A stretch of DNA of 17,421 nucleotides, taken from contig LKMN01000016.1 in NCBI GenBank assembly GCA_001563875.1, positions 1 through 17,421 on the forward strand. The letters run 5' to 3'. Within the stretch, counting starts at the first letter, position 1, and every line of letters begins with the position of its first letter. Of the stretch, positions 9,076-17,421 are shown in pieces. Position numbers and translations under genes: made by a program. The notes beneath the pieces are model-generated. The model saw only the letters and a program-made list of their open reading frames with translations. It was not told the DNA's origin and did not search any database. The stretch is from Nanohaloarchaea archaeon B1-Br10_U2g1 (GTDB lineage Archaea; Nanohalarchaeota; Nanosalinia; Nanosalinales; Nanosalinaceae).

Positions 9076-9789
9076 ATGAGTCTGGGTTTTTCAGATCTGC
9101 CGGAAGAGACCAGAGTCAGGCTCTCCCAAGAAGGAGAAAGAGAACTCTGGCACCGCATAAACGAGTTCGGAGGAATCAAAACGTTCTCTAAAGCCTTCAA
9201 CTACTCCCCAACAAAGATGTACAACTGGAAAAACAAGGGCTCATACGTTCCTATAGAGCTTGTAAGAAAAGTGATGGGAAACAACGCATCAGAACAAGTA
9301 ACCGCATACAAAGGGAAAGGAAGAAGCAAACCGGTAGAAAACCCTGTCTTCCCGCTTCCGGAGAACAACGAACTTCTAACCCGTATAGACTGCTCCGTAA
9401 ACCTCTCCAAAGGAACACCTATATACCAAGCAAACGATCGAGGACAGATAGAACGTTTCCAAGAACTTCTAAACCTTTATGGAGACGTACCTCACAAAGT
9501 CTACAACCGTGGCTCGGTCCATGAACTAAGATACTCTAAACACATGCACAAAATACTCCAAAAAATGGATTATACGGAACATTTAGCCGCACAGATAGAT
9601 GAAAAAGGAACTATAAAAGAAAACAGTATAGAGATTGGACAGAAAAAGCTGAATCCTTCAGAGTTCGAAGGACAGCTCCACCACACTGAAAAAAGGCTCA
9701 AGCTCGCTCTTCTTAAAGACGATAAAGAAACGGTAAGAAAGATAATGGTAGAACAGGCTGAAAAAGTCGAGAAAACATTCGGAAAATAA
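9076..9789 (+). CDS. Cro/C1 (XRE)-type helix-turn-helix protein, 237 aa, Lys-rich and non-acidic
   Basis: Residues about 22-65 (LWHRINEFGGIKTFSKAFNYSPTKMYNWKNKGSYVPIELVRKV) fit the XRE HTH pattern. The rest is Lys-rich and I do not recognise a family. It is opposite-strand, with its own TATA, inside the rpl10-rpl12 cluster. Confidence 0.6.
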   Translation: MSLGFSDLPEETRVRLSQEGERELWHRINEFGGIKTFSKAFNYSPTKMYNWKNKGSYVPIELVRKVMGNNASEQVTAYKGKGRSKPVENPVFPLPENNELLTRIDCSVNLSKGTPIYQANDRGQIERFQELLNLYGDVPHKVYNRGSVHELRYSKHMHKILQKMDYTEHLAAQIDEKGTIKENSIEIGQKKLNPSEFEGQLHHTEKRLKLALLKDDKETVRKIMVEQAEKVEKTFGK

Positions 9790-9833
9790 AAAATCAGATA
9801 ATAAAGGAAAAGGAAGGATTTAGAAGAGAAATC

Positions 9834-10742
9834 TTACTCTTCCGTCTCCTCAGAATCGTCGTCCTCAGACTCTTCTACAGCTTCTAAGTCAAGCTGAGAG
9901 TCTACACCGCGAGCGTTGGATGCTGCGTAACCAACCGATTCCTCGATCGTGTCTTCCACAGGAAGACCTTCTGAAACCGCAACGTTCTTCGCCTTTCTTG
10001 AGGCTTCTCCAACAATTGCGGGAGCGGTTGTAGCGTTGACAACTCCTGCGTTAACTGCAAGGTTGAATGCGCCTGAAGCTGCTGCTTCAACATCGGATCT
10101 GTACTGTTCCGTATCGATATCCAGTTGATCGGAAGTGAATACTTCTCCTTCGCTGTAAGCAATCTTCAGATCCAAACCGATCTCTAAAGGCTCAATACCG
10201 ATCTGGTTAAGGATTTCTACTCCATCGTCATCGATAGTCTCTCCTTCCTCAATGATTACACCAGGGTTCTGTACATGGATAGTTCCATCGTCTACCTGTA
10301 CCTGAAGACCTGCGCCCTGTAGCTTTCCAAGCATAGGTCCTGGACCGATACCTGTGTCACCGTCAGGAATCTCTATATCGTTTGGAGCTGTCTCTCCGCC
10401 CTGTGCTGCTGCACTCGTCTTGTTTCTCTGGATAAGTGAGTAGAGCTGGAAAGGATCTTTCTCTGAGAAGATGAATGCTGGCTGCATCGCTTCACTTGGG
10501 TCAAGAGTTGTGATATCGTCTTTCTCCGCGTTCTCTAAAGCGATCTCCATCAGGTTCTTTCTTTCCATCCTGACGTTAGCAAACTCTTTCATCTCTTTCT
10601 TGATCTCTTGAAGCTGTTTGGCCGGAAGACTCTGCATGTCCAGTATACCGACTACTGATGCTTCTTCTATCTGTCCCTGTAACTGTTCAACAATCTGCTC
10701 CTTGTCTTCACGTGTCAGTGTTTTCGGTGTTGGCTGTACCAT
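9834..10742 (-). CDS. rpl10: 50S ribosomal protein L10 / acidic stalk protein P0
   Basis: N-terminal L10 domain (SVVGILDMQSLPAKQLQEIKKEM), a Gly/Ala hinge and an acidic C-terminus. The ATG is 1 nt after the rpl1 stop. It ends ...EESEDDDSEETEE without a P1-like hydrophobic tail. Confidence 0.9.
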   Translation of the reverse strand: MVQPTPKTLTREDKEQIVEQLQGQIEEASVVGILDMQSLPAKQLQEIKKEMKEFANVRMERKNLMEIALENAEKDDITTLDPSEAMQPAFIFSEKDPFQLYSLIQRNKTSAAAQGGETAPNDIEIPDGDTGIGPGPMLGKLQGAGLQVQVDDGTIHVQNPGVIIEEGETIDDDGVEILNQIGIEPLEIGLDLKIAYSEGEVFTSDQLDIDTEQYRSDVEAAASGAFNLAVNAGVVNATTAPAIVGEASRKAKNVAVSEGLPVEDTIEESVGYAASNARGVDSQLDLEAVEESEDDDSEETEE

Positions 10743-10743
10743 C

Positions 10744-11367
10744 TTACTCTACCTCCACAGGTTTACCCATCGTGGTCTTCACTAGAACTGATTTGATATT
10801 GTTGTTTCCTTGTGGAAGCTCTCTTTCGATAAACTCGTAGACTGCTGAAGCGTTTCTACCTACGTTTTCAGGATCTTGACCTTCGTTCCCTACTTTTAGC
10901 TGTAGTAGAGGATCTTCTTTCAGTCTTAGAGTTACCGTGTTCCTAAGTGATTCGATATCATCTGTCGGGTCCTCTCCCGGCTGTACAGGATCCGGCATCA
11001 TGTTTCTTGGTCCGAATACCTGTCCTAGATGTTGACCGATCTTAGGCATCAGAGGCGCCTCCGCTAGAAGGAATGAGAACTCTTCCGCTAAATCTTTAGC
11101 TTTTGAAGGATCTTCATACATTTCTTCTAGTTCGTCTTCGCTTACCTCGCGGTCTGCGTTGTCAACCTGTGAAGACACTGTGTCTCCGATTACCGCAATC
11201 TTTACTTCTTCATCTGCTTGGTAAGGAAGTTTTAGATCTTCGTTGAAACGGTTGTCAGGATCTGCTAGATCGAGATCCTTAAAGTTGACAATAAGATCGA
11301 TACTTTCTGTGAAGTTTCTCTGTTCTCCGTCTTCTACTGCCTGTTCAACTGCTGTTTCAAAGTTCAT
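10744..11367 (-). CDS. rpl1: 50S ribosomal protein L1
   Basis: L1 family motifs (IDLIVNFKDLD..., KIGQHLGQVFGPRNMMP, VTLRLK). The ATG is 2 nt after the rpl11 stop. A GGAGGG Shine-Dalgarno motif lies 9 nt upstream, inside the rpl11 3' end. Confidence 0.9.
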   Translation of the reverse strand: MNFETAVEQAVEDGEQRNFTESIDLIVNFKDLDLADPDNRFNEDLKLPYQADEEVKIAVIGDTVSSQVDNADREVSEDELEEMYEDPSKAKDLAEEFSFLLAEAPLMPKIGQHLGQVFGPRNMMPDPVQPGEDPTDDIESLRNTVTLRLKEDPLLQLKVGNEGQDPENVGRNASAVYEFIERELPQGNNNIKSVLVKTTMGKPVEVE

Positions 11368-12928: not shown

Positions 12929-13834
12929 TTATATGAACTCTACGCCGAGCTCCTTCTCGATCTCTTCTTCGTATTCGTCGCTATGAGTTTTCTCAGGTCC
13001 GTAGATCTGTGGGCTGTCTACTCCTGTCACGATTATCATCGACTGAAGTGTGTTGTTCATATCTTCTCTGACTTGTGCTCCCCAGATTACTTTTGCTGAG
13101 TCGTGTAGTTTTCCGGATACGGTGTTTACGACTTCTTGTGCTTCGTTCAGGCTGAGAGAGGTTCCTCCTGTTACGTTTACTAGCGCTCCTCGTCCGCCAT
13201 CGATATCTACGTCAAGCAACGGATTGCTTAATGCTTTCTGTACTGCTTCTGTTGCACGGGAATCTGTGTCGCTCTGTCCCATTCCGATCATTGCTATTCC
13301 TCCTTCGCCCATGACTGCTCTGATATCTGCGAAGTCTAGGTTGACTAGTCCTGGTTTTGTAACCAGCTCTGTTACTCCTTTGACTGCGTTCACAAGGATT
13401 TCGTCTGCAATCTTGAATGCTGTGTTTAGAGAAACGTCTGGAACGATTTCAAGCAGTTTGTCGTTAGGTATTACTATTAAGGTGTCAACTACGTCTTCCA
13501 TTCTTTCTAGTCCGTATTCGGCGTTCTCTGCTCTTGCCTGTCCCTCCATCTCGAATGGAAGTGTTACGATACCTACTGTTAGTGCGCCTTGTTTTTTGGC
13601 TTGCTGTGCGATTACCGGTGCGGATCCTGTTCCTGTTCCTCCGCCAAGTCCACATGTTATGAATACCATGTCGGCGCCGTCTACGGTTTCTTTAACTTTT
13701 TGTTGGGATTCCTTTGCGGATTCTTCTCCAACTTTTGGATCTGCTCCTGCTCCAAGTCCTCCGGTAAGCTCTTTTCCGATTAATACTTTCTTGTCTGCGT
13801 TAGCGTATAGAAGGTCTTGTGCGTCGGTGTTCAT
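12929..13834 (-). CDS. ftsZ: FtsZ, residues after the internal stop (T7 loop, GTPase core and C-terminal domain)
   Basis: NTDAQDL, GLGGGTGTGSAPV(I)A and NLDFADIR motifs. Its ATG lies 3 codons after an in-frame TAA. Confidence 0.85.
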   Translation of the reverse strand: MNTDAQDLLYANADKKVLIGKELTGGLGAGADPKVGEESAKESQQKVKETVDGADMVFITCGLGGGTGTGSAPVIAQQAKKQGALTVGIVTLPFEMEGQARAENAEYGLERMEDVVDTLIVIPNDKLLEIVPDVSLNTAFKIADEILVNAVKGVTELVTKPGLVNLDFADIRAVMGEGGIAMIGMGQSDTDSRATEAVQKALSNPLLDVDIDGGRGALVNVTGGTSLSLNEAQEVVNTVSGKLHDSAKVIWGAQVREDMNNTLQSMIIVTGVDSPQIYGPEKTHSDEYEEEIEKELGVEFI

Positions 13835-13843
13835 TGCGATTGT

Positions 13844-14041
13844 TTAGCATCCTTCGATTCCGACCTCGACAAGTCTAGAGATAGTATTGTTTCCTGCTCC
13901 TCCTGAGCCGACTACCTTTATATCGGCTTTTCTCTGCTGGATCAGCTGTTCCAGTTCTTCGTCTATATCATGGTTTTTCTGCTTAGATTGTGGTACGCTG
14001 CCTGTATCGTTCTTCCGTGCTTGTTGAATCTTATCTTCCAT
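13844..14041 (-). CDS. ftsZ: FtsZ N-terminal fragment (G1 motif), ending at an in-frame TAA
   Basis: [24 protein letters not shown] is the tubulin/FtsZ GGGTGxG-type N-terminal motif. It is in the same frame as 12929-13834. Confidence 0.8.
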
Positions 14042-14151: not shown

Positions 14152-14805
14152 TTATTCCTGTTCTATGAACTCCACTTCGAGGTCGGTGTACTCTTCGATT
14201 TCTTGTTTAAGTTCTTCACGTAGCTGTTCTGGTAGTTCGTGTACGTGGTCTCCGTGGCTGTGAGACTTCGGTATCTTCACGGTTCCGTTTTCGAACTCGG
14301 CGTCTTCTCCGTGTCCTACTCTGTAGCTGTAGATATGTTCTGCTATCTCTTCATCGTCTTCAACTTTTTCAACAACCTCAATGTCGTATTCAAGGTCTTT
14401 CCCTGCTAGAGGGTGGTTGAAATCAATTCTTACTCTTCCTGATCCTTTTGATAGTACTCTTCCTCTCTGGTTGCCTATCATAACTTCTTCTCCAGGTCTT
14501 ACGTTCACGCCTTGTTTCTTGAACTCTTTTTCTGGATATGTCTCTACTTTGTCACTGGAACGTTCTCCGTATCCTTTCTCTGAAGGTACTTCAACTGTTT
14601 TTTCTTCTCCAACTTCCATATCTTCTAGAGCTTCTTCAAATCCTTCGATAACGTATTCTTCTCCTATCAGTACGGGTATAGGTTCGTAGCTTACTTCTTC
14701 TCTTTTAACTCCTTCTTCCTCAGCTACTTCTTCATCTGTTAAATCAAAGATTTCGCCGTCTGTTCTTCCAACGTAGTCAACCAGTACCATGTCGCCTTTT
14801 TTCAT
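14152..14805 (-). CDS. FKBP-type peptidyl-prolyl cis-trans isomerase (long SlyD-like form with IF insert and a His-rich C-terminal segment)
   Basis: The MKKGDMVLVDYVGRTDGEIFDLT start is the classic archaeal FKBP N-terminus. A G..V..G.....IP core and a HSHGDHVHE motif are present. The ORF-track TTG at 14829 was rejected in favour of the ATG at 14803-14805, with a TATA-like TTAATACT about 30 nt upstream. Confidence 0.85.
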   Translation of the reverse strand: MKKGDMVLVDYVGRTDGEIFDLTDEEVAEEEGVKREEVSYEPIPVLIGEEYVIEGFEEALEDMEVGEEKTVEVPSEKGYGERSSDKVETYPEKEFKKQGVNVRPGEEVMIGNQRGRVLSKGSGRVRIDFNHPLAGKDLEYDIEVVEKVEDDEEIAEHIYSYRVGHGEDAEFENGTVKIPKSHSHGDHVHELPEQLREELKQEIEEYTDLEVEFIEQE

Positions 14806-14891
14806 CTTTACATCGAAGAAAACAGACAACGAGTATTAAAAGCGCTGCCCTTTGAGAACCGTTAAAAACATTGGAGTCCTGTATATCCGTT

Positions 14892-15820: not shown

Positions 15821-17421
15821 TCACTTAAGAATTATGGCAGGTTTACCAGGTTCGGCTCTAGAGGCCTTTCCTTCATCTGATTTCTCCTCCTCAACTACTT
15901 CGACGTCCAGTTCAAAACGGTCGCTCCAACGCCTCTTGTTCAGTTCAAGTGCTTCGGCCTCAACTTTCTGTGAGATGTACTGTTTTTCGAACTTCCCAGG
16001 ATTTTCCACAGCGTTGACCACCAACTGGTTTATATCCTGAGCATGAGGCTTCAGATCATCTTCTAGAACTCTGCCCATCATCTCTCCTACGTCTTTCACG
16101 TCAAGGTTCTGATCTATACGGGAGAATGCTCTGTACTTCCATTCTGAAGCCTGGATTATCTTCACATTGTTGACGTCTTCATCAACCATCTCGCTGATAT
16201 CTCTGATATCGCTGGAAACTCTCTGGAAGTAGTCCTCTATAACTTCGGCCTCCTGGTCTAGAAGCGTTTCATCTACTTCCGGCCACTCCGTTCTCAGTAC
16301 AAACTGGCTGTGACCTAGCTCGTTCCACAGTTCATCGCTTAGATGCGGTGCGTAAGGGTTTAACATCTTGACAAGGGTTCTTACGCCGTGGCTGAATATT
16401 GCAGGGTCAGGATCGTTCTGTTTATACCAGTAGAGCTTTGTTAGCAGACGGTCAAGCTCTCCTATAGCCATATGGAACTCGTAGTTTTCAGTATCTTCTG
16501 TAACTTTCTCTATAGCCCTCTGTATATGACTTGAGACGATCCGGTTCTCTAGACTTACATCCTCAAGTACGGGTTTGTTGTCGGTTATAAGCTCATAGTT
16601 CTCTGTGACGAGTCGATGAGTTCTTTCAAGCATCTCTTCAGATGATTCTACGCCTTTTTCGCTCCACTCTAGTTCTTTTGTCGGTCCTGCAGCTCTAAGT
16701 ATAAACAGCCTTGCTGTGTCGGCACCGTGATCCTCTATAAGCTGTTCAGGGTCAACAACGTTCTTCTTTGATTTACTCATCTTTCTGACGTCTACTTCAA
16801 GCTCTCTACCGCATTTGCTGCAGTTTTCGCCGTTTTCAACCTCTTCAGGGTACAGCCATCCATGCTCAGGGCATTTGTACGAGGGATGGTGAACCATTCC
16901 CAAGGTAAGCAGTCTCTCAAAAGGCTCGTCTGCTTCAAGCATGTCCTGGTCTCTGAAGAACTTTGTGAAAAATCTTGAGTAAAGCAGATGCATAACTGCG
17001 TGCTCTATACCGCCTATATACTGGTCGACGTTCATCCAGTAGTCTGCGTCATCAATATCGAAAGGAAGTTCTTCGTTTTCAGGAGAGATATAACGTAGGA
17101 AGTACCATGAGCTTCCGATAAAGGTGTCCATGGTATCGGTCTCTCTTCTCGCTTCTTCTCCGCATTCGGGGCACTCAACTTCGTCCCAGGACTCTGAGGT
17201 CTCTATAGGGTTTCCTTGTCCTGTGAACTCCACGTCTTCCGGAAGCTCTACCGGCAGGTCTTCCTCGGGTACAGGAACTGTTCCACATTCGCTACAGTTT
17301 ATAACTGGTATAGGTGTTCCCCAGTATCTCTGACGGGAGATAAGCCAGTCTCGAAGCTTGTAACTTACAGCGGCTTCTCCAGTATTTTCTTCCTCAAGTT
17401 TCTCTATAGCTTTCTGTATGC
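15821..17421 (-). CDS. leuS: leucyl-tRNA synthetase, C-terminal ~530 codons; the gene continues beyond the window end
   Basis: The frame is open to position 17421 and encodes ...[19 protein letters not shown](I)NC..C.. (LeuRS motif), a KMSKS motif ([14 protein letters not shown]) and the archaeal-type C-terminal domain. The ORF-track GTG at 17233 is internal. Confidence 0.93.

Follow-up and report, generated by a model that had tools for sequence, protein, structure and literature searches.

Why should the gene for an otherwise complete FtsZ carry a stop codon within its reading frame? The question is raised by a contig of Nanohaloarchaea archaeon B1-Br10_U2g1, of which a stretch of 17,421 nucleotides (referred to as the window) was analysed. 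The ftsZ1 gene occupies positions 12929-14041 on the minus strand. When translated from 14041 to 12929 it forms a single frame of 371 codons, consisting of a 370-codon FtsZ and a terminal TAA, in which codon 66 is also TAA. This codon (13846-13844, minus strand) is the sole in-frame interruption of the gene. The variant base is at 13846, where a T replaces G on the coding strand and converts GAA to TAA, equivalent to a change from C to A on the plus strand. The list of open reading frames (ORFs) contains two pieces on the minus strand in one shared frame, 13844-14041 (65 amino acids) and 12929-13834 (301 amino acids). The spacer between them has the sequence TAA ACA ATC GCA, exactly as originally described. 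An ATG was predicted to lie three codons after the stop. The ATG is indeed present (Met at 13834), but three codons, ACA ATC GCA (TIA), sit in between. It is thus the fourth codon past the TAA, codon 70, and the gap from stop to ATG is 9 nt.

Read through the stop, the protein starts with MEDKIQ and continues after the TAA with TIA, the Met, NTDAQ, GGGTGTGS, NLDFAD and ELGVEFI up to the terminal TAA. Piece 1 (residues 1-65) contains strand S1, the T1 loop GGAGNN (the G1 motif, within GSGGAGNN at residues 45-52) and helix H1. Piece 2 (residues 70-370) begins with Met70 and contains NTDAQ, GGGTGTGS (T4), NLDFAD (T7), the FtsZ_C domain and a C-terminal LGVEFI peptide. The fused protein matches the Pfam families Tubulin (PF00091, E = 4.2e-49, profile positions 2-189) and FtsZ_C (PF12327, 6.9e-32), and the NCBIfam equivalog TIGR00065 ftsZ with 433 bits (cut-off 295). 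Piece 2 alone matches the Tubulin profile only from position 50 onwards, and piece 1 alone has no Pfam match. Translation, Pfam and TIGR00065 thus bear out the original prediction that the two ORFs together make a complete FtsZ, and translation confirms that its motifs are divided between them, G1 in the first and NTDAQ and T4 in the second. The domain pair and the T1, T4 and T7 signatures of the FtsZ family are present; the uninterrupted frame is absent in the window and present in the near-identical contig L008 described below. Alignment to the structures 1W58/1FSZ shows that the break point falls within the nucleotide-binding fold, after helix H1 and before strand S2. Residue 66 itself is probably not catalytic, judging from the alignment to 1W58 and from knowledge of the fold.

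The opposite strand of the gene carries a 265-amino-acid ORF (13050-13847, plus strand), which was rejected as a gene because it is a Ser/Thr/Pro-rich shadow of the acidic ftsZ. Its TAG stop (13845-13847) is made by the same C-to-A base that produces the TAA in ftsZ.

The closest match in the PDB is the "FtsZ homolog 1" of Methanocaldococcus jannaschii (1W58/1FSZ; E = 1.6e-124, residues 27-343). Downstream of ftsZ, between 8696 and 12921 on the minus strand, there is a cluster consisting of an 82-amino-acid ORF, secE, spt5/nusG and the genes for the ribosomal proteins L11, L1, L10 and P1. According to Pfam labels, this order, starting with ftsZ, is common to the related contigs L001-L009. In archaea, ftsZ1 mostly adjoins genes of the translation machinery (Pende et al. 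2021, PMC8178401). Because of the synteny with secE, spt5 and L11-L1-L10, and because the closest structure is FtsZ homolog 1, we conclude that the window gene encodes the predicted FtsZ1 paralogue. The proteins encoded in the window are acidic, with a pI of about 4-5.

The C-terminus of the window FtsZ, ...EKELGVEFI, is conserved in L001, and its G-V-E resembles the archaeal "GID"-type SepF-binding motif, making it a putative site of this kind. Directly upstream of ftsZ there is a gene for an FKBP-type peptidyl-prolyl isomerase (14152-14829, minus strand), which ends with ...DLEVEFIEQE, to be compared with ...ELGVEFI in FtsZ (12929-12952, minus strand). Both C-termini are conserved in L001 (FKBP at 9231-9884, FtsZ at 10001-11113), which has about 83% DNA identity to the window. 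The common L-x-VEF-I/V tail could mean a shared partner, or it could be due to chance.

The downstream cluster also shows some variation. Between the L10 and P1 genes, on the opposite strand, there is a 237-amino-acid ORF (9076-9789, plus strand) with a basic pI of 9.2 and no Pfam or NCBIfam match. The same gap in L001-L003 is occupied by unannotated genes of 731, 90, 238 and 222 amino acids (15193-19124 in L001). It looks like a variable island inside an otherwise conserved L11-L1-L10-P1 cluster. The acidic C-terminal tail of L10 (9846 region, minus strand) differs in length between near-identical contigs as well as between related ones; there is a 9-nt insertion in L009 (about 2962-2970), and the protein has 302 amino acids here and 308 in L001. 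These tail differences are ordinary low-complexity variation.

The residue that is lost to the stop codon is common in the family but not near-invariant. A motif search among orthologues matched 119 sequences at the position of codon 66, of which 95 have Glu; the others have Lys (12), Asp (5), Gln (4), Met (2) or Tyr (1). Glu is found at this position in all orthologues with more than 90.3% identity, and the FtsZ1 of M. jannaschii has a lysine, Lys65. The description of the Glu as near-invariant was therefore too strong, and the name "GVEF motif" does not apply, since the local motif with the Glu restored is G-I-E-G-C-E-T-I-A-M-N-T-D-A-Q. The best homologues are nanohaloarchaeal FtsZ proteins of 370 amino acids with 87-97% protein identity, followed by those of other DPANN archaea. 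Every one of the roughly 120 best orthologues is a single protein of about 354-381 amino acids, none being split.

Contigs from the same population were retrieved by exact look-ups of neighbouring window proteins. Three of these are nearly identical to the window: L008 (NCBI GCA_001564195.1, LKMW01000053.1, from the metagenome-assembled genome (MAG) of Nanohaloarchaea archaeon PL-Br10_U2g19, taxid 1727664), with 99.7% identity over 5,476 bp; L014 (JGI SL_4KL_010 brine), with 99.8% over 4,325 bp; and L015 (JGI SL_5KL_010 brine), with 99.9% over 3,689 bp. They were assembled independently from different samples of the soda-lake population to which the window also belongs. Codon 66 is covered by each of them, and at 13846 each has a coding-strand G in place of the T of the window, so that the codon is GAA and the frame is open through it. 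L008, the only one of the three to span the whole 370-codon gene, encodes an FtsZ (P0121) that is the same as the conceptual protein of the window at 369 of 369 positions outside codon 66. Codon 66 is also GAA in L010-L013 (81-85% DNA identity) and, when read directly, GAG in L001 and L003 (about 83%). The proposal that a single G-to-T change had caused the interruption is thus confirmed, and the comparison of the Glu codon in related ftsZ genes that had been suggested as a check shows no stop in any related contig whose codon was read. A scan of genome and metagenome collections with a 32-nt pattern, having N at the variable base, found G alleles only. The public gene index contains neither of the exact products of 65 and 301 amino acids, and exact look-ups of the Band7 and FKBP products of the window came back empty as well.

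Six other sites in ftsZ vary among the near-identical haplotypes. All six are synonymous, and there is neither a frameshift nor a second lesion, which shows that the gene is under purifying selection in the population. Given this selection and the lack of further damage, any real inactivation would have to be extremely recent. Judged by the sequences compared, the TAA is established as an isolated single-base difference private to this sequence record, accompanied by no recoding signal.

The window is nevertheless more than a copy of the other contigs with one base altered. Set against two or more other contigs, it represents a distinct haplotype, with four synonymous changes and two intergenic differences (one of them an indel) that are private to it. 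It also has two private non-synonymous differences, E16Q in ribosomal protein L1 (11322) and an Asp-to-Asn change in leucyl-tRNA synthetase (LeuRS; 16546). The Asp in LeuRS is kept even in a relative whose LeuRS is only 32% identical. Two explanations fit these changes, namely a record that is slightly error-prone, or a lineage with mildly deleterious variants. A second in-frame stop had been suspected in LeuRS, for which the ORF list gives a start at 17233; translation showed the frame to be open to the edge of the window, and this candidate was dropped. Other contigs of the population have private non-synonymous differences as well, one of which lies 4 nt from a contig end (L017, window position 14190), indicating that such records contain errors. 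Substitutions that create a stop account for 141 of the 3330 possible in ftsZ1 (about 4.2%), and hence one stray base is enough.

A change in the genetic code, in which TAA would specify an amino acid in this organism, is so improbable that we regard it as ruled out by the gene ends of the window itself. Nothing beyond the in-frame TAA of ftsZ1 speaks for it. Among the genuine stops of the window TAA is the most frequent, terminating 12 of the 22 other ORFs. The TAA codons of P1 (...GLGDLF), L1, L10, Spt5, SecE and FKBP coincide with the C-termini of the L001 orthologues (81-83% DNA identity) or miss them by no more than a few residues, and no tRNA gene was found in the window. The code is standard, and the original view that reassignment is unlikely was correct.

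It has also been considered that the interruption is functional, the TAA being either read through in a programmed manner or followed by reinitiation at the ATG, with a working full-length or two-piece FtsZ1 as the result. The stop and the ATG are just 9 nt apart. Furthermore, the 82-amino-acid ORF begins 7 nt past the true ftsZ stop without a Shine-Dalgarno (SD) motif, suggesting that short-range coupling may occur in the organism. Against this, the stop is kept in no relative, even at 99.9% DNA identity. Its flanks are identical to those of the intact allele, so no readthrough signal can have evolved. The internal context, TAA-ACA, is like that of the true ftsZ stop, TAA-ACT, and of seven other TAA-A stops in the window, so that it equals the context of all 8 of these true stops. 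A 111-nt segment around the internal TAA folds worse than shuffled sequences (z = +1.56; 193 of 200 shuffles were at least as stable), on which ground a downstream readthrough structure was rejected, and no Rfam elements were found in the window.

The ATG likewise gives no sign of having been adapted to a split gene. Met70 is ancestral; intact close orthologues have it too (TIAMNTD), and more distant ones have Val, Ile or Leu instead. The sole SD-like motif upstream of it is GAAGGA, 15 nt away, whereas true operon-internal genes in the window have GGAGG or AGGTG 5-11 nt upstream of their starts. The idea that the ATG is an adaptation was discarded on these two grounds. The break between helix H1 and strand S2, within the nucleotide-binding fold, also argues against a working two-piece protein. 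Programmed readthrough, which had been raised as a rare case in an essential division gene, is not supported: the stop is private to one sequence, neither the three near-identical contigs nor any orthologue has it, its context is that of ordinary terminators, and no structure follows it. Taking all of this together, a functional interruption is very unlikely.

A related scheme can be imagined in which the TAA is real and fixed in a strain, and reinitiation at Met70 yields an FtsZ1 that is truncated to residues 70-370 and lacks the T1 loop. Alone or together with the 65-residue P-loop fragment, such a protein might work as a split FtsZ whose parts reassemble non-covalently, or it might cap filaments as a regulator next to FtsZ2. 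We give this scheme slighter odds still, and consider it barely credible.

A more serious alternative is that the TAA represents a real and very recent loss-of-function allele, ftsZ1 E66*. Cells with this allele would make no full-length FtsZ1 and would survive, perhaps poorly, on FtsZ2 and SepF, the gene being a nascent pseudogene or a transient deleterious variant. The original prediction had asked whether, if ftsZ is inactivated, there is a second ftsZ or an alternative division system elsewhere. A cell left without FtsZ is not supported, because the window gene appears to be FtsZ1 and further division proteins are listed for a close relative: the published table entry for the conspecific MAG PL-Br10_U2g19, as distinct from the window's own genome, gives one SepF, LKMW01000021.1_9, and two FtsZ homologues, of which LKMW01000053.1_9 is orthologous to the window gene and LKMW01000004.1_29 is the second FtsZ, and lists no ESCRT-III (PMC8178401 Supplementary Data 1). 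In the same table, four of the five nanohaloarchaea have two FtsZ proteins. Most archaea, including DPANN, have both FtsZ1 and FtsZ2, and H. volcanii lacking either one proliferates but divides badly (Liao et al., bioRxiv 10.1101/2020.06.04.133736). The distinct haplotype of the window, with its private single-nucleotide differences including two non-synonymous ones at conserved residues, also speaks for a real variant. On the other hand, no further lesion has accumulated, and none of the other assemblies shows this allele. The remaining ftsZ variation in the population is all synonymous, and many nanohaloarchaeal assemblies have kept an FtsZ1 with 87-97% protein identity, so that strong counter-selection is expected. 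In addition, a product of reinitiation at Met70, without the T1 loop but with the T7 face, could poison filaments. A real null allele is possible, although we think it less likely than not.

The TAA is probably a base-call or consensus error, or else a minority allele that was captured by the assembler. This reading is based on the fact that three independent assemblies with 99.7-99.9% identity have GAA. It is strengthened by the synonymous nature of the other ftsZ variation, by the unsplit orthologues, by the scan that returned only G, and by the absence of both pieces from the record. Moreover, by a rough prior that is not a measurement, a gene whose protein is about 90% identical between genera should not have a null allele at majority frequency, and erroneous consensus bases in MAG contigs of low coverage are more common than such an allele. 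It counts against an artefact that substitution errors are rare in a well-covered short-read consensus. The distinct haplotype with its private differences, the survivable loss of FtsZ1 in Haloferax volcanii and the second FtsZ listed for the conspecific MAG count against it as well. The advice to exclude an assembly or base-call error first was sound.

Assuming an artefact or a captured minority allele, the assembler or consensus step would have written a stray or minority T into a contig whose ftsZ1 is otherwise intact. As written, the gene would be a null allele, with translation stopping past residue 65. In the real population the gene would be read as one 370-amino-acid FtsZ1 with Glu66. 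Nothing would be programmed; there would be no recoding, no readthrough signal and no two-piece protein by design. The TAA is most likely not a fixed property of the organism.

For gene calling and pseudogene counts on this contig, ftsZ1 should be treated as intact pending read support, and claims about completeness or "gene loss" in this nanohaloarchaeon should not cite the interrupted gene. A real allele would mean that an obligate ectosymbiont, while keeping FtsZ2 and SepF, has a naturally occurring ftsZ1-null variant. Such a case would provide a modest data point on the dispensability of FtsZ1, and no new mechanism. Whether artefact or real null, the finding is an ordinary one, of small biological consequence and chiefly of practical use.

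A comparison with known systems leads to the same assignment. The window FtsZ has the same T1, T4 and T7 motifs as the FtsZ1 of M. jannaschii (1FSZ/1W58), and differs in having TAA at codon 66 in place of Lys65 and in belonging to a proteome that is acidic, as in halophiles. The neighbourhood of secE, spt5 and L11-L1-L10 matches that of archaeal ftsZ1 as described by Pende et al. (PMC8178401). The resemblance to programmed archaeal recoding, namely UAG for pyrrolysine, UGA for selenocysteine and leaky readthrough, is confined to an in-frame stop in an essential-looking gene. The stop in the window differs from these in being UAA, in being unconserved and in having no downstream element or structure. 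No archaeal recoding system is known to use UAA. Archaeal termination-reinitiation coupling has a similar short gap between stop and start, 9 nt in the window. There, however, the likeness ends, because the "cistrons" of the window are halves of one domain and the ATG is an internal Met codon in intact relatives. The internal-stop "pseudogenes" of MAGs, in which a single nonsense base stems from an error or a rare allele, share with the window gene a single substitution without further damage, the existence of intact and nearly identical alleles within one population, and evident selection. No feature distinguishes the window ftsZ1 from these, and it is in this category that it is filed.
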